In this document: piece after piece, positions 55 to 28,787 of the stretch | Position numbering within the stretch: the first letter of the stretch is position 1 | Layout of the letters: each line of letters starts with the position of its first letter | Assembly (NCBI GenBank): GCA_037442105.1 | Contig: JBBIQV010000026.1 | Location: 1-44,453 of the forward strand | Direction: 5' to 3' | DNA length: 44,453 nucleotides | Origin: Nitrospiraceae bacterium | GTDB lineage: Bacteria > Nitrospirota > Nitrospiria > Nitrospirales > Nitrospiraceae | Program-made: the position numbers and the translations under genes | The notes under the pieces: generated by a model | The model's database searches: none | Told to the model about the DNA's origin: nothing | What the model saw: the letters and a program-made list of their open reading frames with translations, nothing else

Positions 55-610
55 GTTCCTTATGTCAAATCAAGGCCGGGAAGCAGAGGAGGATGAAGTT
101 GGCCGAATTGACAGTGTGTTGGTGCGGCAAGACAGTGACCGTCTCCACTGGTGTGCGCTAGAAATGCAGGCCGTCTATTTCTCTGGCGGGAAAATGGAAG
201 ATGATTTTGCAGTTATGCGGAGGTGGAATGAATCAGGTCTCCCCTTCCCCGCAAAGCAGCGACGTCCAGACTTCCGTTCCTCTGGCCCCAAACGACTCAT
301 GCCTCAGCTCCAAATTAAAGTCCCCACGCTTCGCAGATGGGGGAAGAAAATGGCGGTGGCAGTTGATAATGCGTTCTGGAAATCGCTTGGAGCAATGCAG
401 CGCACGCCACACATTTCAAATGCTGATATTGTATGGTTTGTGGTTGATTATGAGGGACCGACAAGAGACCGCTACAAACTCAAACCACATGAGGCGGTAT
501 TCACTACTTTGGAGCACGCGGTCGAGGGTCTTACTGGGGGAATGCCAGTGTCGCTTGAGCAATTCGAGCACGCGATACGGGAGAAGCTTGAGCGAGGCGA
601 AGCCAGGTGA
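55..610 (+). pseudogene. NotI-family restriction endonuclease, C-terminal ~185 codons; 5' part cut off, probably by the IS
   Basis: Motifs VGRIDSVLV (PD-like), CALEMQAVYFSG (ExQ) and RRPDFRSSGPKRLMPQLQIKVPTLRRWGKK match the NotI family. An in-frame TGA at 32-34 and the absence of an N-terminal Cys-rich region indicate truncation. Convergent with a DNA methyltransferase. Confidence 0.7.
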
Positions 611-1601
611 GCTCTTTCCCTACCAGGAGTTCCGTCATCCTGGCATGATGGGTATTCTTCATGGCAACAGCTTGTGTTTCGAATCCACACTCAGTAGCTA
701 GGTCCACAATCTCAACAGTGCTGTCATAGGTAAGTAACACACTTCCCTCTACTCTCTTGAGCAAGGTAAATAAACTCCGTTGATCTACCTGCCAGTGGGT
801 ATAGAGCCGACGTGCTGCAATCGTGTAGGGTGGATCAACGAAGAATGCGGCATTTCTTTCACGCGCGTAAGACCGGATGACCTCCATCCCATCTCCCTCT
901 ATAAAACTAAATCGTTCGCGCACTGCGGCAATAGTCCGAATCCTACTCGCTAGAGTATGCGGGTACCAACGAGAAGAGAGACCGCGTCCGTTTTCTCCGT
1001 TTTTCACCAGTCCGGCTCCAGTGGCCATAATCCCCCCTCGCTGGACTCGATTTCTTAAGATGGTAGAGAAGGCGCGTTCACGAGGGTTTCTTGGTGCCTT
1101 ACGGAGAGCAGCCAGAACATTCGCTTTAGTAAGCGAAAACTCTTCAATCTTTTGCGCAAGCCATTCGGCTTGTCCGCTGAGAATTACCTTCCAAACAGCT
1201 GCAACATCTGCATCTTTTTCTACTAGGATTACATGATCGGCCAATCGTTCAATGCCAGCAGTTAATCCGACTATCCCACCACCAGCAAACGGCTCAATGA
1301 GCAGTTGGGGCCTTGGCCTCAGACTATTGAGCCAGCTGCGTACATAGGGAACCAGCCAAGTTTTTCCTCCTGGATAGCGGAATGGAGATCGGTGAGGAAC
1401 AGCGGCTACATTGATTGGTTGATCCAGCTCAACATGTGCAGCGGTTCTATAGACCGCCTCGGGATCTTTTGCGATATGAACCTGCGTATCGAGCTCACGT
1501 GCGTATTCAATAACACGACTCGCGAGGATCTGCGGCACTCGGACTACCGTTGTCTTGCCGCTAAGCCATTTCCCAGAAAAAGTTGTGGACGATCTACCCA
1601 T
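531..1601 (-). CDS. Dam-like (D12 class) N6-adenine DNA methyltransferase with short N-terminal extension
   Basis: Motifs SPFRYPGGKT, IEPFAGGG (SAM-binding) and FVDPPY (catalytic). ATG at 1601 preferred over 1748. 3' end overlaps the endonuclease 3' end by 80 bp. Confidence 0.9.
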   Translation of the reverse strand: MGRSSTTFSGKWLSGKTTVVRVPQILASRVIEYARELDTQVHIAKDPEAVYRTAAHVELDQPINVAAVPHRSPFRYPGGKTWLVPYVRSWLNSLRPRPQLLIEPFAGGGIVGLTAGIERLADHVILVEKDADVAAVWKVILSGQAEWLAQKIEEFSLTKANVLAALRKAPRNPRERAFSTILRNRVQRGGIMATGAGLVKNGENGRGLSSRWYPHTLASRIRTIAAVRERFSFIEGDGMEVIRSYARERNAAFFVDPPYTIAARRLYTHWQVDQRSLFTLLKRVEGSVLLTYDSTVEIVDLATECGFETQAVAMKNTHHARMTELLVGKELTWLRLAQASPVSRARIAQATLAFPQ

Positions 1602-1820
1602 TTCGGAAGCTTGTAGCGTGGGAAATGACAGAAAGTCAATCCCTTGTAACAAGGGATTGCTCTTTTTTTTCGAAGATCGCGCTTTACTCTGATGCGGCGG
1701 TGAGGGTGTGGTGCCTGGAGCGCCATGGCCATAGGAGCAGGGCCTCAACGGAAGCAGGAAAGCTGAAACTTAGTGAGGCACGGCGCTCGTGGAGGCAGAT
1801 GCAGGCCACAGGGCTTTCTC

Positions 1821-14998: not shown

Positions 14999-15079
14999 AG
15001 CAAGTAGCTAGCAGCAAGCAGCGAATAGCAAAGATTCTGGACCGCGGAGTTACTAGCTACTCGCTATTCGCTATTAGCT
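14999..15079. repeat. Inverted pair of heptamer arrays (GAATAGC / GCTATTC-like)
   Basis: AGCAAGTAGCTAGCAGCAAGCAGCGAATAGC ... GCTACTCGCTATTCGCTATTAGCT. Confidence 0.7.
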
Positions 15080-16273
15080 CTCTTGAAGTGCCTTATCGAC
15101 GATGTCCGTCAGCGGTGTGTAGCGGTCGAACACGTGGATGTCGAACCCTTCCTCTTGCAGAGCACGCATGGCGTCGAGACCTTCCTTCTCGCGCGGGCCG
15201 CCGCGACGCACCCAAATCCTCACGCCGTTCAACTTCCCGTCGGTCTTGGCCTTCCGGAAACCATTGATGATACCCCCGAACGTTTTCTTCACGTCGGTAA
15301 AGTTCGCAATCGCCCCGCCGACGATGATGTTTTTGATCCCGGGCAGAGAACAGACTTTCTCCGTGAGGATTTCCACCGCCCAATCGGGCGGATCGCCGGA
15401 ATACTCGGCATAGTTCGCCAGCTTGCCGCCACGCGCAACGACGGCATCCGAATAGTACACGCTGGCGCCGCCACCGGCCGGCAACATCGCCGTGTCCCCA
15501 CCGGGGATCTCGATGAACTTGACCGACCCCTTGATCTTGGCATCCACCGCCATCACTTCCAATTCATGCTTGGTGTAGGAACGGCCGAACTCGGCAGCGA
15601 AGGCAAAGTTCCAATCGGGGTGACGGAATTTGGCATCCGCATCGAGCAAGGTCACCGCATCGAGCGCGACCAGTTCGCCGTCGCTCTCCCGGGTCACCAC
15701 AGGATTCACTTCCAAGTACTGCGCATCCTCGTTGTCGAAGCAGGCGAACATCTTACCGGCGAAGTCCGCCATCTTCTTGGCCAGAGGGCCGGCGAACCCG
15801 GCCTCTTTGGCCAGCTTTTCCAACGCATCCGGTGTGGGCGCCTGCCCCACTTCGAGCGACAACCGCTTGACCCGATCCCAATTCGATTCGACCTCGACCC
15901 CCCCACAGTTGGCGACAAGGATATCGGAGCCCTCCCGAGTCGACTTCACCGCACAGTAGTATTCTTCCTTGTGCGGAATCATCTCGGAGACAATGACCTG
16001 CGACACAGTGATGCTCCCGACCTGACGGCCGATCATCTCCTTGGTGGCAGCTTCAGCGCCTTTGAGGTCCAGACCGACTTTGACCAATCCCAATTTGAAT
16101 CGTGACCCGAGCGCTTCGTGCGCTTTCGCAACGAGCTTCGACTTCTGCAGCCAGTCATTCGCCTGACCAAGCTTGGTCAGCTCAGCAACGGATGTGACGA
16201 CCACATAATTCGGGACGGTCATCCCCCACTTCCTCATCAGCCCCATTCCAGGGCCCTCCAGCACCTTGGCCAT
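15074..16273 (-). CDS. aclB: ATP citrate lyase, small (beta) subunit
   Basis: ATP-grasp-like N-part; AGGGASVYYSD, ANYAEYSG, GGAIANFTDV and VRRGGP motifs. AAGGAG RBS before ATG 16273. Confidence 0.97.
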   Translation of the reverse strand: MAKVLEGPGMGLMRKWGMTVPNYVVVTSVAELTKLGQANDWLQKSKLVAKAHEALGSRFKLGLVKVGLDLKGAEAATKEMIGRQVGSITVSQVIVSEMIPHKEEYYCAVKSTREGSDILVANCGGVEVESNWDRVKRLSLEVGQAPTPDALEKLAKEAGFAGPLAKKMADFAGKMFACFDNEDAQYLEVNPVVTRESDGELVALDAVTLLDADAKFRHPDWNFAFAAEFGRSYTKHELEVMAVDAKIKGSVKFIEIPGGDTAMLPAGGGASVYYSDAVVARGGKLANYAEYSGDPPDWAVEILTEKVCSLPGIKNIIVGGAIANFTDVKKTFGGIINGFRKAKTDGKLNGVRIWVRRGGPREKEGLDAMRALQEEGFDIHVFDRYTPLTDIVDKALQES

Positions 16274-16598: not shown

Positions 16599-16952
16599 TT
16601 ACTCTTTCCGCCTAAGTTCGATCACTTTGTTCGTGTCAACCCTTGTGTCCAGCACATTCCGGTAAAGGAGAGTGACCCCCTGGGACACCTCCAGGAGATA
16701 CCGCCCCTTCTCGACATTCGCAAAGCTGAACTTCCCGTCCTGGTCGGTAGTCGTGACCTTCTCAGGAAAAGGAACAGTCTTGGGTGGAATGAGTTTAACT
16801 GTGAGATTGGGCACACCGGTCTGCTCGACTCCCGAAAAGATTCGTCCCTCAACCCTTCCTTCACGCACCTCGATCTTCATGCCATTTGCTTGCACGGCAA
16901 GAGCCAGAACCAGACAGGCGACCAGTGAAGCTTTCAAGCCGGAATGTGTCAT
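16599..16952 (-). CDS. Small secreted beta-sandwich protein (carboxypeptidase-regulatory-like / Cna-B-like domain)
   Basis: Signal peptide (..ALAVQANG), G.VEGRI...GVPNLTVKL and TTTDQDGKFSFANVEKGRYLLEVS. GGGAG RBS before ATG 16952. Confidence 0.75.
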   Translation of the reverse strand: MTHSGLKASLVACLVLALAVQANGMKIEVREGRVEGRIFSGVEQTGVPNLTVKLIPPKTVPFPEKVTTTDQDGKFSFANVEKGRYLLEVSQGVTLLYRNVLDTRVDTNKVIELRRKE

Positions 16953-16966
16953 GGGAACTCCCTTTT

Positions 16967-17503
16967 TCATCGAAAATCAGGAGGAACAGGTGTGAGATCG
17001 GGTACGAATTCTGCTGTGCGACCGAGCGAAATATCTTTGGCCGGCAGAAGCACTTCGCCATTGGTTCTTTTGCTAAGGTCTGCGCGATCTTCGAAGATGG
17101 CGTTGCCCACCACATAAATGATCTTGTATTCCTCACCGACACCGGCCAGTCGAGGCAACTGCAGGCTGAAGTCACTCCCCTGGAGCAAAGAATCCGAACG
17201 GATCACCGCATAGATAGTGACCGGGAACCTGGATGAGGTCACACTCCCTTTGAGGCGAACCTCCTCTACAAACGTAGCCGATTTCACCAGAGGGTAAATC
17301 AGCGGGAAGAATCCCAAGGCAAAGAGGGCCAGGGCAGGAACGTTCGTTTTGAACTTCCCCACCGGCGTTTCGATCTCCGTCACCTGCTTGGATTCTCGAT
17401 CGATATAGATCTTCTCCTTATAGAGAAGCCAGATTCCTCCCAGGACCATGACCAGTCCGGCCAGTGAACTCAAATAGTAGAGAGGTACGATTCTCGGATC
17501 CAT
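16967..17503 (-). CDS. Hypothetical membrane protein (two N-terminal TM helices plus soluble beta-rich C-domain)
   Basis: Hydrophobic segments LYYLSSLAGLVMVLGGIWLLY and VPALALFALGFFPLIYPLV. GAGGAG RBS; co-oriented with neighbours. Confidence 0.75.
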   Translation of the reverse strand: MDPRIVPLYYLSSLAGLVMVLGGIWLLYKEKIYIDRESKQVTEIETPVGKFKTNVPALALFALGFFPLIYPLVKSATFVEEVRLKGSVTSSRFPVTIYAVIRSDSLLQGSDFSLQLPRLAGVGEEYKIIYVVGNAIFEDRADLSKRTNGEVLLPAKDISLGRTAEFVPDLTPVPPDFR

Positions 17504-17563
17504 CCCAGTCTCCTCAAGGTTTGCAATAGCCAGTCACCACCTCGATCTTCCTCGGGCTCTCCT

Positions 17564-18454
17564 TTAGATGAGCGCTAGCCCGCATTGATTGATCACGCGC
17601 TGCCACTGGAAGCCGGGATGGACGTCCGACTTATCCGGCCGGAGATGATGATGACCGAGTATCCCTTCGAACTCCCGATATGCGTCATCGGCATCCAGAT
17701 GGTTAGCCGGCGTCTGGCGAGGAATATCCAACCGTCCGCAGAGCCAATCGATCAACGCCGCGACGGCCGTTATCTGGGCGTCCGAGTAGGCGTCGAAGAA
17801 CCGGTAGCCGCGCCACGGCATCCCGCACTCGTAATGCTCCTGCGTGAAAAGCGTGCGGTCTGACACCCTGTCAAAGCAATAGAGTTTGTCATCGCGCAGA
17901 GTCAAGCCGCCCTCGCTGGCGAGCTCAATTCCGACACTCCGCTTGTCCACCGCACCGCCCGTTCCCTTCAGCCCCAAGTGGAAGGCCCAATACGTGGGCT
18001 CGAACACCTCGTAGATCTCGCCGTTGCGCTCGATGACATAGGCGGTCCCGACGCGCTGGGGATCGGTCTTCCAATAGTCGATCGTACTCTTCGCCGAACC
18101 CCCGACTGTGTGATGAAGAACGATGAGGTCCTTCCTCGTCTCCGTCTGAATGTAGTCCTTGTCCTCCAGACGTTGGCTCCGGTTGATCTGAGGCTCCGCC
18201 CGTTCCGAGGCGGGCTGTGGCTCCGGCGTCACAGACCCCGGCTCTTCACGACTCTCGAACAAGGCCGCCCAGGTCCCCTTTCCGACTTTTCCGTCCGCAG
18301 CCAGACCAGCGCTTTGCTGAAAGGCCTTGACCGCTTTCTCGGTGCCGGGACCAAAATCGCCATCAACCGGCCCCCCATAGTGACCAAGTGCCAGTAGTCG
18401 CTGCTGGATGTCTTTGACCGGTTGGCCTTTCGATCCTCGTTTGTATACCGCCAT
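17564..18454 (-). CDS. Peptidoglycan-binding domain + N-acetylmuramoyl-L-alanine amidase (Amidase_2), no signal peptide
   Basis: PG_binding_1 pattern (VDGDFGPGTEKAVKAFQ...ADGKVGKGTW), P/E-rich linker, then IVLHHT, WAFHLG, SVGIEL and GHHHLRPDKSD Zn ligands. GGAGGAGG RBS before ATG 18454. Confidence 0.88.
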   Translation of the reverse strand: MAVYKRGSKGQPVKDIQQRLLALGHYGGPVDGDFGPGTEKAVKAFQQSAGLAADGKVGKGTWAALFESREEPGSVTPEPQPASERAEPQINRSQRLEDKDYIQTETRKDLIVLHHTVGGSAKSTIDYWKTDPQRVGTAYVIERNGEIYEVFEPTYWAFHLGLKGTGGAVDKRSVGIELASEGGLTLRDDKLYCFDRVSDRTLFTQEHYECGMPWRGYRFFDAYSDAQITAVAALIDWLCGRLDIPRQTPANHLDADDAYREFEGILGHHHLRPDKSDVHPGFQWQRVINQCGLALI

Positions 18455-18600
18455 ACGCCGCCTCCTCCCAAAGCCCTGGTCGCCCAACCGTCTAACGCCT
18501 CCGTCCGCTCCGCAACGGATGTCCGGGACAAGCTATTCGCACTTGCATCTCAGCGGCCGAGATCTGCCGTGTCGGCGTTGGCTTCCCGTTTTCCGCAATC

Positions 18601-20061
18601 TCAATCCCGGCTCAGGTATTCCAGCCTGCCATCCGGACCAGGCTTCAGTTGGTGAATGTCCCATTTCTTGGCTGCCGAACGAGCTTGCTCCAGCTTTTGC
18701 GCGATTACGACTTTCCTCCCGTCCGTGCGTAGACTGATCATCCCGTAGACGGCCACGCTCCGTTCAAGCTTGCGGTAGGTCCGATCCAACTGCTTCTGGA
18801 GGTCCTTCCTCTTGCTCTCGCTCGCCGCATTTGCGAGTTCCCGGTTCAACTTGTTGATCTCATCCCGCAACTGCTGGGGAACCGTGTTGTACTCCTTGGT
18901 GGAACGGGCCAGTTCGGTGCTGAAGATCAACGGCCGCCGGCCGCGCCCGTACTTGCCGAAGGCGCCCAGCGCATCAGGCCTGGGATGGCTGTAGGACTCC
19001 TCGTCGCCGCTGGAGACCACCGTGGCCACCGCATTCACCGCCCTCAGGTACGTCTCTCTGAAATCTCCGCTTCCGTGATGACAGGCCTTCGCGATATCCG
19101 ACTCGAAGATCTGACGGGCTGCTGTGACCAGGTGGTCCTCATCGGCGGTGGTCTCGGCTTCCGGATTCAAGCCGGTGTATCGCTCCAGGAGATAGTCTTC
19201 GGACGGAACGTTCAGATCGCCTCCGAGCAGCATGTTGACCTTCCGATATTGGAGCTTCAGGATCACCGAATGCCCGTTCTTCGTCTTTCCTTCGTCACCG
19301 AACCACCGCAGCCGGCGTTCCCCGTTCGGTCCCGGCTCGGGCACCGGTCCCAGCACCTTGAGGCTCAGTTCGGCACCTTCATCGTATCCGGGAAGAAATC
19401 CATCCTCGGAGCAGAGCATCCGGATGTCCCCGACCCGTCCGCTGGAGGCCGCTAGGCGCAAGAGATTCGGATACAACATCCTCCCGCGTCGCGCCGGATT
19501 GTCGATGATGCCCCTGAGCGCCGCCTGATCGCGAATGACATCGGTCAGGTAGGACACCGCTCCCTCCTTGACGCGCGGGCCGAGCGACTGCGAACCGGTC
19601 CGTTCCACGATCCCGTTATGGCACAGCAGGTTCACACGAACATTCTGCTCCGCCAGGATGGGCTTGAAACCGGCATAGTGGTCCATGTCGGGGTGGGTGA
19701 TGACGGCACACTCAAACGTGATCGGCTGCTTAAATCCGCCAAACCGCCAACGCAGAAAGCGGTACATGTTATCGCCCTCGCCGGCATCGATGAGGAGAAA
19801 TTTGTCGTCCGGCGTCACGATCAAACAGCCGTCGCCCTGGCCGATATCGACGAAATTCACCTCAAGAAGCCTTTCCTCCTGAATATCGTCTTCGTGCATC
19901 CATCCCGTCTGATTCCGGGCTCTGACCTGCACCCACTTCCCTTCCTTTATCCCCAGTGGCTTCAGCCAATCCCCCCACAACAGGTGCTGCACAGCGGCAC
20001 CAGGCTCTCTCTTGCCCGGCTTCTTGTACACGCCCGCTGATGGGTAACCTGCAAAGGGCAT
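18601..20061 (-). CDS. ComEC/Rec2-type metallo-beta-lactamase-fold hydrolase with N-terminal SH3-like domain
   Basis: FVDIGQGD, LIDAG, THPDMDHYAG, GDLN, KACHHGS and YSHP motifs. N-terminus LLWGD...WVQVRARNQTGWM is SH3-like; C-terminal coiled coil. AGGAGG RBS. Confidence 0.85.
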   Translation of the reverse strand: MPFAGYPSAGVYKKPGKREPGAAVQHLLWGDWLKPLGIKEGKWVQVRARNQTGWMHEDDIQEERLLEVNFVDIGQGDGCLIVTPDDKFLLIDAGEGDNMYRFLRWRFGGFKQPITFECAVITHPDMDHYAGFKPILAEQNVRVNLLCHNGIVERTGSQSLGPRVKEGAVSYLTDVIRDQAALRGIIDNPARRGRMLYPNLLRLAASSGRVGDIRMLCSEDGFLPGYDEGAELSLKVLGPVPEPGPNGERRLRWFGDEGKTKNGHSVILKLQYRKVNMLLGGDLNVPSEDYLLERYTGLNPEAETTADEDHLVTAARQIFESDIAKACHHGSGDFRETYLRAVNAVATVVSSGDEESYSHPRPDALGAFGKYGRGRRPLIFSTELARSTKEYNTVPQQLRDEINKLNRELANAASESKRKDLQKQLDRTYRKLERSVAVYGMISLRTDGRKVVIAQKLEQARSAAKKWDIHQLKPGPDGRLEYLSRD

Positions 20062-20132
20062 AGTGCCTCCTGAAAATCCAGGCCAATCCGGCGGCCTATT
20101 CTCCGTCCACGTGGAGCAACCGGAATGCGGGA

Positions 20133-22625
20133 TTACCGTTGCATGACAGTGTTATCGCGCACCGGGCATGGCGTTCCGGCCTCTGCCCATTTCTTAATGC
20201 TGTTTTTTATACTATCCGTATCTGAGCCGAGATCGAACGGACAAACAAGGTCCGAGCTGAATAGTCTCTGCATGAACTCTCGAATTACGGCAGGTCTCCC
20301 GGCTCCTCCGACTTTCACCATATAGCCAGAAATAGGCAACTTGGTTCTCTCATCGACGGTTTCTTGCTCTTCAATAACGAGCGGGGTCCTGTCACGATAG
20401 TCGAAAAGTATCATGCCGTTCTTGAATTCGTATCGTGGCCGTCCTTCCTTCTCTTGATCTTCTTCCAGGCTTTTCTCGAGCTGCTCCTTCCGCGCAATTT
20501 TCACAGTGATCTCAGCATCCGCCTGGTCCTTCATGATCTTAATCATGTCAGAGAGTTGGGTTTCGTCCTTCATGATCTGCTCGCTGAAGACAAACAACCT
20601 CTCGATCTTGACCTTGCGATCCCTTGCGGCATCCAGATTCGCCTCCTGGTACTCCCTAAACCGATCATTCTTTGTCCAAGGGAAAACGGCATAGTCGATC
20701 GCCCAGACCGTATCCCCTTCCTTGGTACTGCGGACGGCCCAGAGAAGTTGATCAAGCGCGGCTCGTTCGATGGCCTCGTCCAAACGCCGCCGCCCACTCA
20801 TACCGCGCAACTGCCCCCACAGTTCATCAAGCCGAGCTTTGAACGGGAGTTGATAGAGTCTTTCATCCCACCCTGTTGGCCAACAGAACTTCTTTTTGCT
20901 ATTAATAAAAACGTCTCGGCAGCCGGCTCTAAATTCTCGATCGAAGATCCTGACCAATTCCCTTTCTATCATCGGCACAGGCTCGCCCGCGGCTTCACCT
21001 GCACAGACTTGCTTCGCGTTAGTTTTGTCGATACACCGAAGCACCTCGTCTTTAGATCGTAACGACCCTCGAACCAGCCGTCTCGCAGCACCGACGAGCG
21101 TATCACGCTGTGCTTGCGTCAACGAGAGCGAGGTCCCGATGCTATTAATATCATTAAGGAGTTTCGCTTCGGCCTTGGAAGCAGAAAACAGTCCGGCAAT
21201 GTCGCCTTCCTCAGGCTGAACAACACGCGGCTCGTTTAACAGACCCTTGAAGCTCAGCTCCACGATGTTGATCCCGAACAGGGGGAAGAGTGCCTTGTAC
21301 AGAGAGAGCGAGAGCTCGGACCGTTGGGTCGTCAGGGAGTCAAAGCTTTGATTCAACGTCTCAACAAGGCTCCCCCCGCCCGTCGTCAATAGGGAGGGGA
21401 CTTCGGCGTTCACCACAATGATGATCATCTGCCGCCGCTCCCCCCCGCGCAGTCTCTTTTGCTTGAACAAATAGGGCATCAGGCCCTCGATGCTGAGATT
21501 TTCGTACACACCGCCATCAATGAGAGAGAGATGCTCACTATGCACACGATCGTCATAGAACTTGGAGCAAACCTTCGGAAGGAATTCTGGGCGGCTTGTC
21601 GGTTTGAGCCTATAGGGCTCGAAAATGCCGGGGAGCCCCGTGGTGGCAGCTAGCGCTGCGGCAATCGGGAAGCTTTCAAAATTCCGTCGGTCACGCCATT
21701 GGTCCATCGTTTGAGCCAGCAGGCACTCGATCGACACCCAATCAAATGTAAAGATTCGTTGGTTGTTCAAATCCGTCGCATGGATCAAAAGCTTCGATTC
21801 CTTCAGTGGCTTCGGCAAATTGTCGGCCTTCTTGCCAGATGTCAGCAAGGAATCATCATCCACAGAGAAGCGGTTATAGAGCGTTCGAATGTCTCCAAAC
21901 CGTTTGCCCCCAAGGAATCGTCCGCCCAGGATCGCTTGGTCATAAATGCGTTCCACTTCACGGATGTTCACCACGCCGGGAACCCCCTTCAACACGACAT
22001 ACCCGGTGAGCGAGGGGGTTGGATAACCCAAGAGTTGAAGAGGATAGGTGGCTACAGACACCGGAATGTCGAGCGCCGCGAGCAGGCCGCGCAAAGGAAA
22101 CGCCCAAGGCTCGAAAAACCAGTGTAGATTGCGGAGCAATTCGCTTTCGATATTTTTTCCGAGAATGGAGGGAAACTCGCGCCTGAGCTTGTCAACGCCA
22201 TACAGCGAGTAGTAGGCGGCGGGAAATGCCCCACCCGATGTCGCAGAGATGAAGTCAACATAATGGAGAAGTTTTCCATTAATGACCGCATCTTCAGGGC
22301 ATTTGGTCTTGGCATCGGCATCGGCTTTCGCATTCTCAGGTTCTGTGTCCCCAGCCAAATCATGATAGACAAACTTTAGTTTGTACTTCGGTTCCTCTTT
22401 CTTTGCCTTCTCATCCTTCCCTTCTTCATCTGGAATGAGGCACAAGTACACACGGTCAAGCTCTTGAATCACACCGTAGGAAAATGCTGCGGCTCTGAAC
22501 CCCCCACCTGACAGGGCCAACGCGATGAGCGGCCGCTGGTCGTCAGCAGTGGGCTCCGCTGAGCACAGCACGACAGGAATCACCATGCACATTCCTACGG
22601 TCGCAGCAACTACAGTAAGCTTCAT
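20133..22625 (-). CDS. Secreted patatin-like phospholipase with additional ~200-aa C-terminal domain
   Basis: Signal peptide MKLTVVAATVGMCMVIPVVLCSA, ALSGGGFRAAAF oxyanion loop, SATSGG nucleophile elbow and LIDGGVYEN catalytic Asp. ATG 22625 lies 7 nt after the upstream stop. Confidence 0.82.
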   Translation of the reverse strand: MKLTVVAATVGMCMVIPVVLCSAEPTADDQRPLIALALSGGGFRAAAFSYGVIQELDRVYLCLIPDEEGKDEKAKKEEPKYKLKFVYHDLAGDTEPENAKADADAKTKCPEDAVINGKLLHYVDFISATSGGAFPAAYYSLYGVDKLRREFPSILGKNIESELLRNLHWFFEPWAFPLRGLLAALDIPVSVATYPLQLLGYPTPSLTGYVVLKGVPGVVNIREVERIYDQAILGGRFLGGKRFGDIRTLYNRFSVDDDSLLTSGKKADNLPKPLKESKLLIHATDLNNQRIFTFDWVSIECLLAQTMDQWRDRRNFESFPIAAALAATTGLPGIFEPYRLKPTSRPEFLPKVCSKFYDDRVHSEHLSLIDGGVYENLSIEGLMPYLFKQKRLRGGERRQMIIIVVNAEVPSLLTTGGGSLVETLNQSFDSLTTQRSELSLSLYKALFPLFGINIVELSFKGLLNEPRVVQPEEGDIAGLFSASKAEAKLLNDINSIGTSLSLTQAQRDTLVGAARRLVRGSLRSKDEVLRCIDKTNAKQVCAGEAAGEPVPMIERELVRIFDREFRAGCRDVFINSKKKFCWPTGWDERLYQLPFKARLDELWGQLRGMSGRRRLDEAIERAALDQLLWAVRSTKEGDTVWAIDYAVFPWTKNDRFREYQEANLDAARDRKVKIERLFVFSEQIMKDETQLSDMIKIMKDQADAEITVKIARKEQLEKSLEEDQEKEGRPRYEFKNGMILFDYRDRTPLVIEEQETVDERTKLPISGYMVKVGGAGRPAVIREFMQRLFSSDLVCPFDLGSDTDSIKNSIKKWAEAGTPCPVRDNTVMQR

Positions 22626-22632
22626 GGCCGCG

Positions 22633-23202
22633 TCACCATTGGAACCCCACACCCAATCCAAAGAGAATGAACATTTGGTGTCGTCCAGGTCCTGTAAGGT
22701 TGTACCCGACTCCCACACTGACCAGGTCCCGCAAGAACCCGGCAACGATGGCCGGCTGAAGGATGAGATCGGGCGAATCTTCGGATTTGGCTATGAACAT
22801 CGTGGGAGCAATCGAAAACAGCGGAGACACCATCGGCTTCGGCTTGCCATCGGTCGGTTTGCCATCAGTAGATAACGTCTTCGCACGACATTCCTGCTTG
22901 ATCCGACGGATGTCTCCACGCGCATCCGGCACCTTTGCCAGTTCCGAATCCGGATAATACCGAAACGCAATGCCGGTCCCGAGCCCCGGCGCATTCAACG
23001 CTGCTTTCTTGGTAGACAAATTGTAACGGATCAATTGAGTCGTGACGTAAGACCCAACGGATATATTCGGCGAAATGTCACCACCCGCTAGCCCGCTGCG
23101 TTCATCCTCACTCTCTGCTACACAAGGATGACCTTCCGCAGACCACGCATTTGACGAAAACAGCAGCGTTACGATAACGCCCATGGTCATGAGCCTGTTC
23201 AT
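22633..23202 (-). CDS. Secreted hypothetical protein, probable small outer-membrane beta-strand protein
   Basis: Signal peptide (MNRLMTMGVIVTLLFSSNAWS), amphipathic strands (GIAFRYY, VSVGVGYNL) and C-terminal FILFGLGVGFQW beta-signal. GAAGGGG RBS before ATG 23202. Confidence 0.7.
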   Translation of the reverse strand: MNRLMTMGVIVTLLFSSNAWSAEGHPCVAESEDERSGLAGGDISPNISVGSYVTTQLIRYNLSTKKAALNAPGLGTGIAFRYYPDSELAKVPDARGDIRRIKQECRAKTLSTDGKPTDGKPKPMVSPLFSIAPTMFIAKSEDSPDLILQPAIVAGFLRDLVSVGVGYNLTGPGRHQMFILFGLGVGFQW

Positions 23203-23264
23203 AAAAATCCCCTTCGAATCGTCCATGCAGTCGCCCGGAACTGCGTGGAAGCTCGGCACATGGG

Positions 23265-24119
23265 TCACTTGAACAGATCCGTGTCCACGTACTCTGCCTT
23301 CACCAAGGTCCAGTAGTCCTCGGCCAGTCCGCTTTCCACGTAGCTGTACGGCAGCCAGCCGTAGCCCTTCTCGCCCCACTCGGTGCCCCAGGAGTTGCGG
23401 ATCAGCAGCGCGCCCTTGTCCTTGCCGATCTTCTTGCCGTCGTCATAGCCCACCGCCACGACCGCATGCCCGCCATCCATCCTGTCGCCGGGGCCGGGAT
23501 AGGGAATCTCCCCCTTGCCGTCGCCTGTGCCGGACATCGAGCTGTAGACGGAGAAGCCGAACATCACGGGGAGCTGCGCGGCCAGCGACTTCTTGATCTC
23601 ACTGAGAGCCTTGGTTGGTGCCGTTCCCGGCGGATCGAGGCGGTAGTATTTGACCGCTTGGTAGCTCTGCGCGAACGCATAGCAAAAGGAGGTCGGCTCG
23701 TCCTCGAACTTGGCGATGCGGTACGGCCAATACTTCTCCGGCGGCACGCCGAACAACACCATGGCCTTCATCGTGTCGCGGAGTTCGGCGCCGGTGTCGC
23801 CTTTCGCGCCCATGAGATTGCGCGTGACCTTGTAAAGAAACAGACGAGACGCGTCCAAGTGCTTGCCGAACGCCCGCCGCTCAAAATATTCGAAGAGGGC
23901 GACCCCCGCGTTGGCGGTGCATGAGCCCAACTCCCCCTGGTCCTCGATCGGGGAGCACCACGCACGGAGATCCGCCGATGGCGGCAGAACCTTGGCTACG
24001 GCTTTGAGCGGCCTTGACCTCACAAGCACTTCTTTGATCGTGTCGCTCTCCACGTTGAAATCGCGCACGTCCGGCAAATCCGGCCGCCACCCCATTCCCC
24101 GCCATCCCATTCCGTTCAT
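23265..24119 (-). CDS. Papain-family (C1A) cysteine protease, no signal peptide
   Basis: DQGELGSCTANA (Q/C), GGHAVVAVGY (H) and IRNSWG (N). AGGAGG RBS. Confidence 0.93.
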   Translation of the reverse strand: MNGMGWRGMGWRPDLPDVRDFNVESDTIKEVLVRSRPLKAVAKVLPPSADLRAWCSPIEDQGELGSCTANAGVALFEYFERRAFGKHLDASRLFLYKVTRNLMGAKGDTGAELRDTMKAMVLFGVPPEKYWPYRIAKFEDEPTSFCYAFAQSYQAVKYYRLDPPGTAPTKALSEIKKSLAAQLPVMFGFSVYSSMSGTGDGKGEIPYPGPGDRMDGGHAVVAVGYDDGKKIGKDKGALLIRNSWGTEWGEKGYGWLPYSYVESGLAEDYWTLVKAEYVDTDLFK

Positions 24120-24286
24120 CAGCCGCCTCCTTCCTGAAGAACATCACTTGGTCGGATAACCGGATCGTTGAATCTTCCAGAGACTGGAATGACTCTTATC
24201 CCCCTCAATCGCATGTTAATGTAGGAATCAAACTGTCTCCCATTTCTGAATAGTCATTTCCTACGAACCAGATCGGTCAGGCACTA

Positions 24287-25315
24287 TCACAGTTTTCGCA
24301 CCTTGATTGAGTACTTTCCTGTCCCACTTTGACGACTATAGTGACGCACCTGCGCAAAATACTCTCCAGCGATCAAGTCCGCGGCGATCCTGGCATTGGT
24401 ATCCAGGCCGGAGTCATCATCTTCTGCAATCAACGCGGTATCGCTGTTCGGTCCAAACAGCTTCATAACCACGTCCGTGGGGCCGAGCGTGTCGATGACA
24501 TATCGCCCATCCGACGGGGCGGTAAACCGATACAGATCTTCCTCTCCGATCTTCCCGATCGAAGCCTGCGTACGACGCTTGGCATTCACACGTAGCTCAA
24601 CAGCAGTGGCCGTCGTCCCTCCCGTCTTCGGATACATCTTGGCCCCGGCGACGAATGCTTTGTCCATCTGTGACAGCACATCGTTCGCCTTGGTCCCGAT
24701 GCCGTTGAGCGTCCAGGAGGCCGGGAAGAAATACAGCATGATGGAGTCCGGATCGAACGCAGTCCCATTTATCTGATCCGCGCTGTACTTCCGAAGGATG
24801 TTGTGGCGCGTGGTCGCTTCATCCCAGAAATTCGGCGACTTGGCCGCTTCCCGGATCACTACTTCCTCGTTCCATTGAATCCCTCCAGCGGGGTTTTGAT
24901 GCTCATGCGCCAATCCGATCGCATGACCAAACTCGTGCGCCGCCGTACCGCCATCCAGAAACCCCAGATTCATGGTCGGCTCGTCCAAGGGAATGCTTCG
25001 GCAGTCCGTGCCGACGTAGGACCATGCCCCATCATTGCGATCGAAAGCGACGCGAATTTCGGCGTTCAGAGCATCGTTAAAAGCGAATTTGAGGTTGGCG
25101 ACCTGGGCCCACCAATCAGCCTGCTCTCGTGCCACCTTCTGCTCGGTCGTAGTGCCTCCCATGAATCGGACTCTCAGCGTCGAGCCATTCATCCAGGTCT
25201 TCCCGATCGGAGCGATCGCACGCCTCCCTCCATCTCGCATTCGGCGGACCGGCTGAAAACGCATGAGATCACGAGGCAACACACGGTCAATGCACACCTT
25301 AGGGCGTTCGTCCAT
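24287..25315 (-). CDS. Astacin/M12A-like metzincin metalloprotease with C-terminal PPC domain, no signal peptide
   Basis: HEFGHAIGLAHEHQ zinc motif and SIMLY Met-turn. C-terminal EEDLYRF...DVVMKLFGP...AEDDDSG...L.AGEYFAQVRHY is PPC-like. Confidence 0.9.
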   Translation of the reverse strand: MDERPKVCIDRVLPRDLMRFQPVRRMRDGGRRAIAPIGKTWMNGSTLRVRFMGGTTTEQKVAREQADWWAQVANLKFAFNDALNAEIRVAFDRNDGAWSYVGTDCRSIPLDEPTMNLGFLDGGTAAHEFGHAIGLAHEHQNPAGGIQWNEEVVIREAAKSPNFWDEATTRHNILRKYSADQINGTAFDPDSIMLYFFPASWTLNGIGTKANDVLSQMDKAFVAGAKMYPKTGGTTATAVELRVNAKRRTQASIGKIGEEDLYRFTAPSDGRYVIDTLGPTDVVMKLFGPNSDTALIAEDDDSGLDTNARIAADLIAGEYFAQVRHYSRQSGTGKYSIKVRKL

Positions 25316-25412
25316 CTGTCACCTTCCTTTTCTATAGAGTGTTCGGGTTACATACCGTTCCCAGTAGCGGAGATGTAGAGCAAGTTTGTACCTCGACGAC
25401 CTCCTTGTCGGG

Positions 25413-25754
25413 CTAATGGCCGCGTCTTGCTCGTCTTTCGTCCTTCGCCCTGGGTTTTGGGCCTCGCATGAAACGCGCGATTTCTTTCAGGTGTTTTTGC
25501 TCGAGTCCGTAGAGGTGATCCTCGGCGGCAATTTTCTTCTCGCGCCGCGTCACCCATCCCATGAAGACCAGCTCATCAATAGCCGCTTGGACATCCTTCC
25601 GGCTCCACCGCTTTTCCTTCTTTGAGATCCACCAGTCTGCAATTCCGCTGATCGTATCCTTCGCTTCAGGATGTTCGATCCAGTAGCGAAGGATGCTGTT
25701 GACGATCCTCGGATCTGTCTTCAAAGAAAATGTCCGCTCATCGCGCCGCGGCAT
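25413..25754 (-). CDS. Small hypothetical protein, probable winged-helix fold
   Basis: ILRYWIEHPEAKDTISGIADWWI...VQAAIDELVFMGWVTRR...HLYGL helix-helix-wing pattern. ATG 25754 lies just downstream of a sigma-54 promoter motif. Confidence 0.7.
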   Translation of the reverse strand: MPRRDERTFSLKTDPRIVNSILRYWIEHPEAKDTISGIADWWISKKEKRWSRKDVQAAIDELVFMGWVTRREKKIAAEDHLYGLEQKHLKEIARFMRGPKPRAKDERRARRGH

Positions 25755-25784
25755 TGGACTTCTCGTTAGAAGGTGGTAAGCGTC

Positions 25785-25800
25785 AGCAAGCAATGTGCCC
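25785..25800 (-). promoter_or_regulatory. Sigma-54 (-24/-12) promoter of the hydrolase cassette
   Basis: Minus strand GGGCACATTGCTTGCT is GG-N10-GC and close to the TGGCAC-N5-TTGCW consensus. It sits 30 nt upstream of ATG 25754 and next to a bEBP gene. Confidence 0.75.
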
Positions 25801-25850
25801 CCTGACAGGTTGCAAATTCTTCGGTCAATCGCCGGCTTAGGTAGATCACA

Positions 25851-25972
25851 CTCCGGCCCTGCGGCAGAATTGCCGCAGGGCCGGAGCAGGCAATTGGACG
25901 ATTCTCATCGAAAGATTGAGCGATTAGTGGTGCGGCAAAGTCGATCCCGGTCCTGCGGCAGGCAGGCCGCAG
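25851..25972. promoter_or_regulatory. Palindromic sites, candidate upstream activator sequences (TGCGGCA-N4-TGCCGCA)
   Basis: Perfect 16-bp inverted repeat CTCCGGCCCTGCGGCA-gaat-TGCCGCAGGGCCGGAG (25851-25886). Second copy TGCGGCA-ggca-GGCCGCA (25954-25971) and half-site TGCGGCA (25931-25937). Confidence 0.55.
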
Positions 25973-26025
25973 AAGAGCGGTGCGCGATTATCCGCTACCG
26001 CGAGGGATGGCAGCGTGCTTGCGGG

Positions 26026-27429
26026 TTAAGGATTGACTTCGAACGTGCGGCGATCGAGGTGGTGTTTCTGAAGGAGCCGTTGGAATGACCGTCGCTCCTT
26101 GCCTGCTGTACGAGCCGCTTGCGACACATTCCCTTGGGCAATCGCCAGAAGCTTGGCGAGGTAGGACCGTTCAAATTCTCGAATGACCGAGTTTTTGGCC
26201 TCACGCAGCGACTCACTTGTGGTTACCAAGAACTCATCACCGGATGAGATCGCCAGACTCTCTGGTTGAATGGGAGGCTCTGTGGTAGTCAGCACCGCCC
26301 GCTGAATCACGCTCTCGAGCTCCCGAACATTCCCCGGCCATGGGTAGCTGAGCAATTTGCGCAGAGCGGCAGGTGTAAGTAAGGCTCCGGACATCTCATT
26401 GCGCACACCATGGATCTGGGCAAAATGCCGTGCAAGCAGCGGGAGATCTCCCAAGCGATCCCTCAGCGGCGGTATCTCCAGCGCAAGCACATGAAGCCGG
26501 TAGTACAGGTCCTCTCGGAATATCCGCTGCCGGACTTTTTCCTTCAGATCAGCGTTGGTCGCGACAATGACGCGTACGTCCGCCTTCTTGGTTCTGACCG
26601 ACCCCAAGGGGCGATACTGTTTATCCTGCAGGAATCTGAGCAATTTTGTCTGCCCTGTGAGGCTCAGCGTATCGATTTCGTCGAGGAACAGGGTACCTCC
26701 CTCTGCTTCTTCTATGAGTCCTGCCTGACGGGTAAAGGCATTGGTGAAGGCTCCGCGTTCATGCCCGAATAATTCGTTCTCGAAAAGCTGATCCGGCAAT
26801 GCGCCGCAATTCACCGGGATGAACGGTTTCCCTTGGCGCCTGCTGTGATAGTGAATCGCGCGCGCAAAGAGTTCTTTTCCTGTTCCGGTTTCTCCACCAA
26901 TCACCACCGTGGCGTCGGAGCCCGCCAGAAGAGGGATTTGCTCAACCTGCCGGAGAAACGCTTCGCTCTCGCCGATCAGTGATTCAACCCGGAAGGTTGC
27001 CAAGGCGATCTTGGTGCGGGCTGGTTCGAACGGTGCTCGGCTGCGCGTAATGAGGCGCCGCAAGCGAGGAATGAGGTCAGGCCCTGTGACAGGACAGGTG
27101 ACAAAGTCGTCCAGCCCAAGGTCCAACGCTTTCTGAATCACTTCGTGGCAGAGAGACCCGCAGAAGGCACCGATGAGAGGCGTCGCTTTCCATGAAGGGC
27201 TCGCGGCATGGAGGAATTCTTGTAACGGAAGCTCCCCCTCCCCGTGCAGGATCACCGCATCGGGAACCACCGTCTCATTCTTGATCTCCGTGAGCCGCTT
27301 CTTGGAAACGTCGAGCAAGGCCTTTTGCCCAGTACCAGTCCGGTTATCGAAGAGGCGCAGGCAAGCATCGGGCTGGGGAACGAACGGAAGCGTGTCGACA
27401 AACACAACTCGAAAAGGCTGCATGAGCAC
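26026..27429 (-). CDS. Sigma-54-dependent transcriptional activator (degenerate receiver + AAA+ + Fis-type HTH)
   Basis: GETGTGKE Walker A, ENELFGHERGAFTNA, LFLDEID Walker B, FREDLYYRL, WPGNVREL and C-terminal GNVSQAAR HTH. Start GTG 27429 or ATG 27423. Confidence 0.93.
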   Translation of the reverse strand: MLMQPFRVVFVDTLPFVPQPDACLRLFDNRTGTGQKALLDVSKKRLTEIKNETVVPDAVILHGEGELPLQEFLHAASPSWKATPLIGAFCGSLCHEVIQKALDLGLDDFVTCPVTGPDLIPRLRRLITRSRAPFEPARTKIALATFRVESLIGESEAFLRQVEQIPLLAGSDATVVIGGETGTGKELFARAIHYHSRRQGKPFIPVNCGALPDQLFENELFGHERGAFTNAFTRQAGLIEEAEGGTLFLDEIDTLSLTGQTKLLRFLQDKQYRPLGSVRTKKADVRVIVATNADLKEKVRQRIFREDLYYRLHVLALEIPPLRDRLGDLPLLARHFAQIHGVRNEMSGALLTPAALRKLLSYPWPGNVRELESVIQRAVLTTTEPPIQPESLAISSGDEFLVTTSESLREAKNSVIREFERSYLAKLLAIAQGNVSQAARTAGKERRSFQRLLQKHHLDRRTFEVNP

Positions 27430-27513
27430 AATCCGCTAACACGCGACAACCCTACAAGAGAGGCTCGCGTGCGGCATGAAGACTATTTCTCTATCGAACG
27501 TGTCGATAAGAAC

Positions 27514-27530
27514 TGCATCTGCCATACCAG
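27514..27530 (-). promoter_or_regulatory. Possible second sigma-54 promoter upstream of the activator gene
   Basis: Minus strand CTGGTATGGCAGATGCA is GG-N10-GC, a weaker match (ATGC at -12). Confidence 0.35.
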
Positions 27531-27752
27531 GATGTCCTCAAAGCGTGCTAAGTGTATAACGATGCGACATAAAGGTCTAGTGTAAAGGAAGGAGCTATAC
27601 TTAGGTGCGTCATCGTGCTAGAACCACGCTATGGCATGTATTGTTTCTGATACTCGGTGTATCCAAACAGATACCCCTTATTCTGATGTCGAATTAGAAC
27701 CGTGAAACCGTAGCGCCTGTCTACAGACCCGCTCATTGGCATTACACCTGAG

Positions 27753-28589
27753 CTAAACACAAGACCGCCGTTGGCACGTAGGGCAATAAAACGAGCTGCG
27801 TTCTCCGCGGAGACGGCGGATGTTGGAGCCACAGTGACTTGGGCAAGGCTGACCTTGTTTGCCATACACGAGATGGTGTTGCTTGTAACCACCTTCGGTG
27901 CCGTCAGGCGCAAAGAAATCTCGGATGCTCGACCCGCCGCAGTCGATGGCGTCCAAGAGCACCTGTCGCATCGTGTCGTACAGGAGATCGATCATCTCCC
28001 GCCGCATGCGACTCGCGATCCGATGTGGATGCAGGCGGGCTCGGAACAGAATTTCGTTGGCGTAAATGTTCCCGATCCCGGCGATCGCCTGTTGCTGCAT
28101 CAACAACGCTTTCAGACATCCCCGGCGCGCCCGAATGAGCCTCGCAAAGTCTTCTCGTGAAACCGTTAAAGGATCGCAACCAAAGCGTCGTGCGGTGAAT
28201 CGATCGAGCCCCCCCTTGTCTACCAGATAAATTCTCCCGAACCTCCTGGGATTCCAATAACGCAGTTCCGATTCGATTGCTCCCTCAAGGGTGAGCACCA
28301 CGTGGGTGTGGTGCGGGTGTTTCACCTTCGCCGACGGAAATAACAGCAGCCCTGTCATACCGAGTTCCGCTACGAGGTAACGCGTATCCCCAGCACGAGA
28401 GAGAGACAGCACGACACACTTGCCTCGCCGCTCGACGCCTTCGATCCTCGCCCCTCGATACCAGGAAAGGGCATCAAACCCTTCGCGCACGATATCTTTT
28501 CGCCCAACCCAGCAGTGCTTCACGGTCGCACCGAGAATACGGGCTCGCAGTTGGCGACTCGCGACCTCCGCTTCAGGAAGTTCCGGCAT
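27753..28589 (-). CDS. mutM: Formamidopyrimidine-DNA glycosylase
   Basis: MPELPE N-terminus, RRGK, LGMTG, GIGNIYANE H2TH motif and C-terminal zinc finger. Confidence 0.95.
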   Translation of the reverse strand: MPELPEAEVASRQLRARILGATVKHCWVGRKDIVREGFDALSWYRGARIEGVERRGKCVVLSLSRAGDTRYLVAELGMTGLLLFPSAKVKHPHHTHVVLTLEGAIESELRYWNPRRFGRIYLVDKGGLDRFTARRFGCDPLTVSREDFARLIRARRGCLKALLMQQQAIAGIGNIYANEILFRARLHPHRIASRMRREMIDLLYDTMRQVLLDAIDCGGSSIRDFFAPDGTEGGYKQHHLVYGKQGQPCPSHCGSNIRRLRGERSSFYCPTCQRRSCV

Positions 28590-28787
28590 CCACGTACCTC
28601 AATCTCGCCTCACCTGTTCCGATCACTGGGCGGCGAACGCTTACCGTGAAACAACAGCTTTGCACAATATAATCTAACGAGTGATTAGGCCACGACCCTA
28701 CAGAAAAGGCAACCGACGCGACAGGCGCAGAAGGAGTTTCGCGAGGAGACGACAAGGTCTGAGAAAAAGCGGGGGAAACGCAGGTGC

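Follow-up and report, generated by a model that had tools for sequence, protein, structure and literature searches.

The 44,453-nt stretch analyzed here (hereafter, the window) comprises positions 1 to 44,453 of contig JBBIQV010000026.1 from a Nitrospiraceae bacterium (assembly GCA_037442105.1). Between the genes mutM and aclB it harbors a cluster of ten genes on the minus strand (16599 to 27429), headed by a gene for a sigma-54 bacterial enhancer-binding protein (bEBP). We conclude that this cluster probably derives from a locus for an extracellular contractile injection system (eCIS) and is what remains of it: a predicted sigma-54 regulatory head and a variable 3' accessory tail, without the structural core. 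The core genes seem to have disappeared at this site rather than to have moved. A sequence-only reading of the window had proposed either an undescribed ten-gene multi-hydrolase system or the detached module of a contractile injection system encoded elsewhere. The latter proposal comes close, as the genes represent the two ends of an eCIS locus, its head and its tail; however, no core was found elsewhere in the assembly, which is 86.7% complete and consists of 62 contigs. The former was not supported: among 250 genomes of the family, only one shared a block with the cluster (four tail genes), and the block of the last four genes was found in none at the DNA level.

That one genome, G002, is the only other genome of the genus compared. 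Its mutM gene is followed by a bEBP (73% identity), the small gene that also stands second in the cluster, Pvc16, a CarboxypepD protein, the sheath, two tubes, an eCIS_core/DUF4157 protein, a CIS_tube-LysM protein, a GPD hub, a spike OB protein, PAAR, gp25, baseplate J, Tail_P2_I, and an AAA ATPase. The order continues with the M12 (91%) and C1 (90%) peptidases, gene 5, and a patatin, these four at 71 to 91% identity, and then an M48 peptidase, a peptidoglycan (PG)-binding protein, a Cache-domain protein, and a second patatin before aclB. In BLASTN alignments, window positions 26017 to 28591 and 20231 to 25389 matched G002 positions 46843 to 49414 and 19265 to 24467, respectively; the eCIS core of G002 between them measures ~21.9 kb, and the window has 97 bp instead. 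Orthologous flanks thus enclose a full eCIS at the same site in a relative. The DNA similarity stops at 20231, inside the patatin gene, and the last four genes of the cluster (metallo-beta-lactamase [MBL]-fold hydrolase, amidase, gene 9, and gene 10) are missing from the G002 locus, where the counterpart of the amidase is limited to a PG-binding domain. The head followed by an eCIS also occupies this site in G045, G050, G129, G185, and G202. The window itself contains no core gene; no particle can therefore come from this locus, which does not qualify as a functional eCIS but does qualify as an eCIS-derived one.

The junction (25390 to 25412, minus strand) marks the site of the core in G002, and the core-less arrangement is real. 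It is bridged by one contig in run X1, which may be the source, and by one in X2/X3, from a strain that differs by single-nucleotide polymorphisms (30 differences listed across 14 kb) and for which X2 and X3 probably represent a single data set; none of the loose contig ends listed falls at 25390 to 25412. An assembly artefact was rejected, since the junction is bridged in two strains. The small protein shares only 36% identity with that of G002 and 47% with that of G006, and the intergenic DNA is unrelated or distantly related to that of G002; the lost core therefore probably differed from the core of G002. In G006, the sheath gene lies directly behind the small gene and is preceded by a Shine-Dalgarno sequence. 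In the window, the heptamer AAGGAGG (25406 to 25400) stands right behind the stop codon of the small gene, but a start codon is missing at the spacing typical of a Shine-Dalgarno sequence, which weakly hints at a lost core with a sheath-first layout.

The head consists of the bEBP gene (26026 to 27429, minus strand), the small gene (25413 to 25754, minus strand), and the region between them. The bEBP has a divergent N-terminal region, an AAA+ domain (Pfam Sigma54_activat) with the motifs GETGTGK and GAFTNA, a variant of the canonical GAFTGA loop, and a Fis-type helix-turn-helix. The predicted -24/-12 promoter (GG-N10-GC; 25785 to 25799) is the sole minus-strand match between 16300 and 27760. 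Two palindromes, predicted to be enhancers, sit ~60 and ~155 bp upstream of it: the proximal one (25851 to 25886) has 16-nt perfect arms and a perfect core at 25860 to 25877, and the distal one (25954 to 25971) deviates from TGCGGCA-N4-TGCCGCA by one mismatch. The promoter motif occurred in all but one of the 21 homologous head regions (20 of 21), compared to 0.75% of 2,000 random 330-nt genome windows, and the palindrome, with up to three mismatches, in 17 of the 21, compared to 2.3% of random windows; because the two patterns had been adjusted to these very loci, the enrichment is somewhat overstated. No other locus of the assembly pairs such a palindrome with a nearby sigma-54 motif, and an rpoN gene is present in the genome. 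The loop, the promoter, the upstream palindromes, and rpoN together are the attributes of a bEBP-controlled sigma-54 operon. The ten co-oriented genes, the bEBP, the palindromes, and the -24/-12 motif that the sequence-only reading had described were confirmed by the list of open reading frames (ORFs) with their translations, by Pfam, and by motif scans against random windows, and the proposed sigma-54 control is a well-supported prediction, given the conservation of the motif and the presence of rpoN. Scans for sigma-70 promoters and terminators remained at or below chance level. A second GG-N10-GC motif (26009 to 26023, plus strand) lies just beyond the stop codon of the bEBP gene and points antisense into it, which may reflect chance or autoregulation.

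The small gene encodes a protein of 113 amino acids outside Pfam families that was modelled as a winged helix (predicted local distance difference test score, 74). A Foldseek search with this model placed winged helix-turn-helix proteins of the MarR/ArsR type on top, with weak scores (best E value, 2.9e-3). The ESM Atlas returned unnamed clusters only, the search for homologous proteins returned the protein itself, and a search of genome contigs gave five chance matches of 28 residues. Of the 250 family genomes, 62 matched the small gene, and a 200-genome sample of the phylum yielded 12 matching genomes from other families. In all 20 loci for which 20 kb were read, a related bEBP stands directly upstream of the small gene, which leads into an eCIS operon in 11 cases and into a Tad pilus operon in 9 (assignments confirmed by Pfam on representatives). 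Among 45 short loci, a set that overlaps the 20 long ones, the bEBP was visible in 36, of which 27 lead into eCIS and 7 into Tad, with 2 left unassigned; 1 of the 9 loci without a visible bEBP also runs into an eCIS. The gene-neighbourhood comparison suggested along with the ten-gene proposal thus showed that the bEBP and the small gene recur with eCIS or Tad operons, but that the ten genes do not co-occur. In the bEBP tree, the window protein is sister to the eCIS-head bEBP of G002 (support, 100/99), within a 12-row clade (the window and 11 eCIS-head bEBPs) that is set apart from the 8 Tad-head bEBPs (99/98, midpoint root). The tree of the small protein was poorly resolved for the window sequence, which forms a long branch.

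The paralogous bEBP and winged-helix head that leads Tad operons in 9 of the 20 long loci also carries the promoter motif, together with a degenerate form of the palindrome. The genome under study has a Tad locus of its own on contig C2 (~95400 to 103700), without this head. The family also contains a second type of eCIS head, composed of a GerE regulator and a gene of ~130 codons (G126, G063, and G164), once in the same slot next to mutM; the small ORF behind GerE in G126 and G063 had no detectable homology to the winged-helix protein. We did not find a description of the bEBP and winged-helix head in the literature searched, which mostly excluded subscription papers.

The mutM gene (27753 to 28589, minus strand; Pfam Fapy_DNA_glyco/H2TH; 87% identity to G002) and aclB (15074 to 16273, minus strand) form the upstream and downstream borders of the slot, respectively. 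We surveyed this slot in 80 genomes, 7 of them hand-picked. Nine lacked one of the two genes, and of the 71 with both, 3 had them on separate contigs and 68 on one contig. The gap between mutM and aclB was at most 500 bp in 56 of these 68 (median, 231), 0.7 to 3.3 kb in 9, and 28 to 41 kb in 3 (G002, G045, and G050), all three filled with the head and an eCIS. In G126, a GerE-headed eCIS follows mutM, and an eCIS end with M12 precedes aclB on another contig. Since mutM and aclB are adjacent in most genomes, the site is a variable insertion slot, whose empty state is the rule and which is used by several eCIS layouts. The synteny comparison of this interval, also proposed beforehand, thus yielded a full eCIS with four of the tail genes at the same site in G002, whereas the interval was essentially closed in the majority of the genomes.

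A scan of the whole genome, as assembled, for an eCIS or a type VI secretion system (T6SS), a check that the sequence-only reading had suggested, was negative. The tube (PF06841), sheath (PF04984), and baseplate J families and the T6SS sheath TssC/VipB (PF05943) gave no match in the genome; in controls, PF06841 matched none of the control genomes and 84 of the 250 relatives, and PF05943 matched in E. coli. Neither baseplate and spike genes (gp25, baseplate J, hub, LysM, and PAAR) nor the Pvc16 terminator and the Afp15-type ATPase were found in the 86.7% of the genome assembled; the ATPase gave generic AAA matches only (29 to 33% identity over 81 to 220 amino acids). Searches with 94 ORFs (20 of G002 and 74 drawn from a Tad locus and five more eCIS loci) gave no match to an eCIS core in the genome and recovered only AAA ATPases of a generic kind, a stretch of an unrelated gene, the Tad locus on C2, and the small gene. 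The 59% match of a G126 ORF on contig C32 was rejected as an eCIS gene, as it falls on a stretch of an unrelated housekeeping gene. The window, as had been stated, is free of eCIS, T6SS, and phage structural genes.

The tail starts with a predicted M12A metallopeptidase (24287 to 25315; all tail genes are on the minus strand) of the myroilysin type, with Pfam Astacin and PPC domains, 91% identity to G002, the motifs HEFGHAIGLAH and SIMLY, and an N-terminal cysteine (Cys8) that may serve as a cysteine switch. It is followed by a predicted C1A cysteine peptidase (23265 to 24119; Pfam Peptidase_C1; 90% to G002; QGELGSC/GGHA/IRNSWG) and by gene 5 (22633 to 23202; 88% to G002), an exported protein with a hydrophobic N terminus and a C-terminal aromatic residue, possibly located in the outer membrane. 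In the ESM Atlas, gene 5 matched unnamed clusters only, with low recognition and dominated by phages; PagP/PagL, at 0.86, are leads only. The predicted lipid hydrolase of the patatin family (20133 to 22625; Pfam Patatin; 80% to G002; SGGGFRA/ATSGG/DGG) has an N-terminal signal and a long C-terminal extension. The predicted MBL-fold hydrolase (18601 to 20061; HPDMDH/NGHS/GGDL/HHGS) combines an SH3-like and a ComEC-type part, with Pfam Lactamase_B below the cutoff and a partial match to NCBIfam ComEC_Rec2. The predicted cell-wall amidase (17564 to 18454; Pfam PG_binding_1 and Amidase_2 domains) has an endolysin-like layout and the motifs VLHHT/IELAS. Gene 9 (16967 to 17503), coupled to gene 10, encodes a membrane protein, and gene 10 (16599 to 16970, or with a start at 16952) encodes a small exported protein with a CarboxypepD_reg fold, just under the Pfam cutoff. 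The Pfam scan assigned no family to the small gene, gene 5, or gene 9. The claim that all catalytic motifs are intact was borne out for the M12, C1, patatin, MBL, and amidase proteins, except that the C-terminal histidine pattern of the amidase was not matched by the regular expression, although HHHLRPDKSD stands in the translation.

Start codons were corrected from Shine-Dalgarno spacing and N termini to ATG at 25754 (small gene), 23202 (gene 5), 22625 (patatin), and 18454 (amidase); an alternative TTG start of the small gene (25793) falls within the predicted promoter. The cluster has a GC content of 53 to 60%, matching the remainder of the window, and the protein clusters of M12 and its relatives are labeled Nitrospira, Nitrospiraceae, or Nitrospirota, which fits the gene neighbourhood of the reductive tricarboxylic acid cycle. 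At the contig end, a stretch of lower GC content carries a gene for a D12-class adenine methyltransferase (531 to 1748, minus strand).

The M12, C1, MBL, and amidase proteins lack hydrophobic N termini and Sec-type signals, whereas patatin and genes 5, 9, and 10 have hydrophobic N termini. Signals of eCIS cargo have been described as hydrophilic (PMC11297309). The N termini of the four signal-less proteins are likewise moderately, but not strikingly, hydrophilic, as the hydropathy of their first 50 residues ranks between the 12th and 24th percentile of 1,007 long ORFs. The window M12 matches the catalytic domain of myroilysin (PDB 5GWD; E value, 9e-39), with which it has HEXXHXXGXXH in common. 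Myroilysin is kept latent by a cysteine switch (PMC9848320), and the N-terminal cysteine is also present in the window protein, which differs by its C-terminal PPC domain and by lacking a Sec-type signal. NCBIfam AbsR1 matched residues 44 to 334 of M12 with 167 bits, below its cutoff of 650. The relative SCO6992/AbsR1 was reported to have glucuronidase but no protease activity (PMC9705864), and the term protease for M12 is therefore a prediction. The predicted C1 peptidase aligns over residues 8 to 272 with PDB 3OIS, its closest solved relative (E value, 6e-41), including the catalytic motifs, in a different genomic context. We take 3OIS to be xylellain.

The distribution of the tail genes weighs in part against an origin from an eCIS locus. 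The block of M12, C1, gene 5, and patatin is common to the window and G002 only, and the block of MBL, amidase, gene 9, and gene 10 was found in none of the 250 family genomes at the DNA level; beyond G002, no family genome shared a multigene block (best two candidates per genome scored), and the ten genes are thus not a conserved unit. For M12, 19 close homologs (73 to 91% identity) were found, of which only 5 adjoin eCIS genes; another 5 sit directly in the mutM-aclB slot, which in these cases has neither head nor core; 2 precede aclB but have different or unknown genes upstream, and 7 are elsewhere. It is thus possible that M12 resides in the slot independently and is not an eCIS cargo. Similarly, C1 homologs were away from eCIS in four of the five loci read, and MBL homologs were so in all nine family loci read. 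No relative with the winged-helix allele of the window and an intact core was found, with a single other genome of the genus compared. Considering the incomplete assembly, the absence of a core from the genome is likely, not proven. Links to eCIS nevertheless exist: a DUF4157 gene lies upstream of M12 in G185, G129, and G110, in the last of which M12 stands behind ATPase and DUF4157 genes while the mutM-aclB slot is empty, and the C1 homolog of G164 is located directly behind a DUF4157 gene. The identity of M12 (84 to 96%) and its synonymous divergence roughly track those of aclB across 10 genomes, and one eCIS-bearing and one M12-only allele are sisters in both the M12 and aclB trees, which fits repeated core loss, or core gain beside a resident M12.

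M12 is conserved across genera about as well as ATP-citrate lyase (86 to 91% to the window), yet its occurrence is patchy (19 of 250 genomes). Peptidoglycan-active genes of differing families (amidase-SH3, GH46 with PG-binding, and PG-binding protein) follow it in 12 of the 19 relatives, two of these being split or fragmentary. A 255-residue protein without Pfam family (L061:250-1014, P0272) stands behind M12 in many relatives (80 to 91% identity between genomes) and in the slot without M12 in G009, and is missing from the window. The MBL hydrolase belongs to a broad family, with 965 representatives at an E value of ≤1e-10, of which some are fused to DUF2779, RNase_H_2, or TIR domains (P0002, P0009, and P0058); these fusions suggest that this unnamed family may have nucleic acid or defence roles. 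Of 23 metagenome loci, 16 contained gene 9 paired with gene 10; on metagenome contig L158, from another organism, the two stand with genes for an S8 peptidase and an emfourin-like protein, divergent from a winged-helix-headed eCIS operon.

The evidence for decay of the remaining genes is mixed. The ratios of nonsynonymous to synonymous substitution rates relative to G002 were 0.066 for M12, 0.065 for C1, 0.15 for gene 5, and 0.26 for patatin, compared to 0.025 to 0.21 for housekeeping neighbors, over a time in which the core may still have existed. In the tail, the two core-less strains differ in 13 synonymous and 11 nonsynonymous codons, with ~24% synonymous expected (no transition correction). 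Both results argue against plain decay and, to that extent, against a mere remnant. On the other side, one of the 11 nonsynonymous differences is a nonsense codon (W41) in M12 of the second strain (one data set; contig depth, ~8), and M12 is split in G218 and G110. Early decay is favoured over a kept function by a modest margin.

We weighed four other explanations. It is conceivable, at perhaps a third of the weight we give to the remnant, that the same core loss occurred and the remainder was kept as a particle-free program, in which the bEBP induces cytoplasmic zymogen proteases, the cell-wall amidase, and an exported lipase, a program that would serve self-lysis or the remodelling of biofilm. 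None of the ten ORFs is interrupted in the window strain, the promoter and the two palindromes match the consensus exactly or closely, the bEBP and the small gene are identical between the two strains, and the four distal genes that G002 lacks are present and intact; the recurrence of a varied peptidoglycan-active gene behind M12 points in the same direction. This idea has to contend with the nonsense codon in M12, the reported lack of protease activity in the relative SCO6992/AbsR1, the failure to identify a holin or spanin in the cluster, and the lack of a second core-less lineage with head and tail among the loci read. Alternatively, the slot may be an insertion hotspot at which the M12/hydrolase module and the bEBP head met in a lineage that never had a core, the cores of relatives having been inserted between them. 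The prevalence of empty slots, the M12 divergence that tracks aclB, the frequent occurrence of M12 alone, and a small gene strongly unlike that of G002 agree with this view. We consider it unlikely, because the bEBP and small gene led into an eCIS or Tad operon in 34 of the 36 loci, the bEBP tree pairs the window protein with one from an eCIS head, M12-only alleles come without the head, and, as a weak point, the start-less heptamer stands where G006 has its Shine-Dalgarno sequence and sheath.

Still less probable is a cargo or regulatory module that works in trans with an eCIS whose genes escaped assembly. The fragmented assembly and the tube genes located away from the mutM-aclB slot in some relatives leave room for it, but an eCIS core of ~20 kb would have to be wholly missing, and the 94 queries and three eCIS families gave no core match. 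Least probable is an anti-phage defence island around the MBL hydrolase. PADLOC and NCBIfam returned weak matches of the MBL domain to LmuA, Avs1a, RTasMBL, and 6A-MBL, and some homologs carry the fusions mentioned above; these matches span ~70 to 90 residues and are far under the cutoffs where these exist. The full-length effectors and partner genes of the PADLOC systems concerned (Lamassu, AVAST-1, and DRT) were not found, and no other tail gene had a PADLOC match; the defence role raised by the sequence-only reading thus received nothing beyond these weak MBL-domain hits.

The remnant reading agrees with what is known of the eCIS superfamily (Afp/PVC/MAC). Such loci are defined by tube, sheath, baseplate, spike, and related core genes (Chen 2019, PMC6899500), usually have effectors at their 3' ends, encode variable toxins, and release particles by lysis (Geller 2021, PMC8213781). 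The cluster likewise has a 5' regulator and variable 3' enzymes, and its relatives carry a core at this site. For the tail enzymes as candidate eCIS-associated toxins, the 3' position is seen in relatives. The eCIStem gene table (PMC8213781) contains at least 48 rows for Sigma54_activat, 21 for Amidase_2, 17 for Lactamase_B, 10 for Patatin, and 1 each for Astacin and Peptidase_C1, all being lower bounds, and the same data include an NtrC-family gene in a Nitrospirae eCIS. The regulators named in the text of that paper are RfaH, GerE, and BTAD, in contrast to the sigma-54 bEBP and winged-helix pair of the window, and the regulation of many eCIS loci is unclear according to a review (PMC10598620). 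Compared to the tailocin and phage lysis cassettes covered in that review, the amidase is similar in being endolysin-like, with PG binding and no Sec-type signal; the cluster differs, as neither holin nor spanin was identified in it and it is not under SOS or PrtN-PrtR regulation. No description of core-less eCIS remnants or of Nitrospira eCIS regulation was found in the literature searched, on which unseen supplements may bear.

According to the remnant reading, the bEBP would bind the TGCGGCA-N4-TGCCGCA enhancers and open the -24/-12 promoter, the first gene of the operon being the winged-helix gene. In ancestors, the head would have driven particle synthesis and then the tail genes, of which the signal-less M12, C1, MBL, and amidase proteins may have been cargo or lysis and release enzymes, with the exported patatin and the small envelope proteins as accessories acting on the envelope. 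Once the core was gone, transcription from the promoter would run directly into a tail left without a particle to serve, probably in early decay. A bolder synthesis, which we regard as doubtful, would assign overall control of both eCIS and Tad pili, in the Nitrospiraceae that oxidise nitrite and ammonia, to the unnamed bEBP and winged-helix head with its TGCGGCA-N4-TGCCGCA enhancer; in the present lineage, the loss of the needle genes would have rewired this head to particle-free self-lysis or matrix remodelling, and a strongly conserved cytoplasmic myroilysin-like protease with an interchangeable cell-wall hydrolase would be the eCIS release module.

The analysis removes a false lead, in that multi-hydrolase clusters behind this bEBP can be leftovers of eCIS. 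It defines mutM-aclB as a chromosomal slot where eCIS of several layouts come and go and provides candidate cargo or release enzymes, chiefly the M12 peptidase with its conservation close to that of ATP-citrate lyase. Of greater interest is a by-product, the regulatory head, whose predicted regulator, enhancer, and promoter would offer a route to inducing eCIS particles in nitrifiers.

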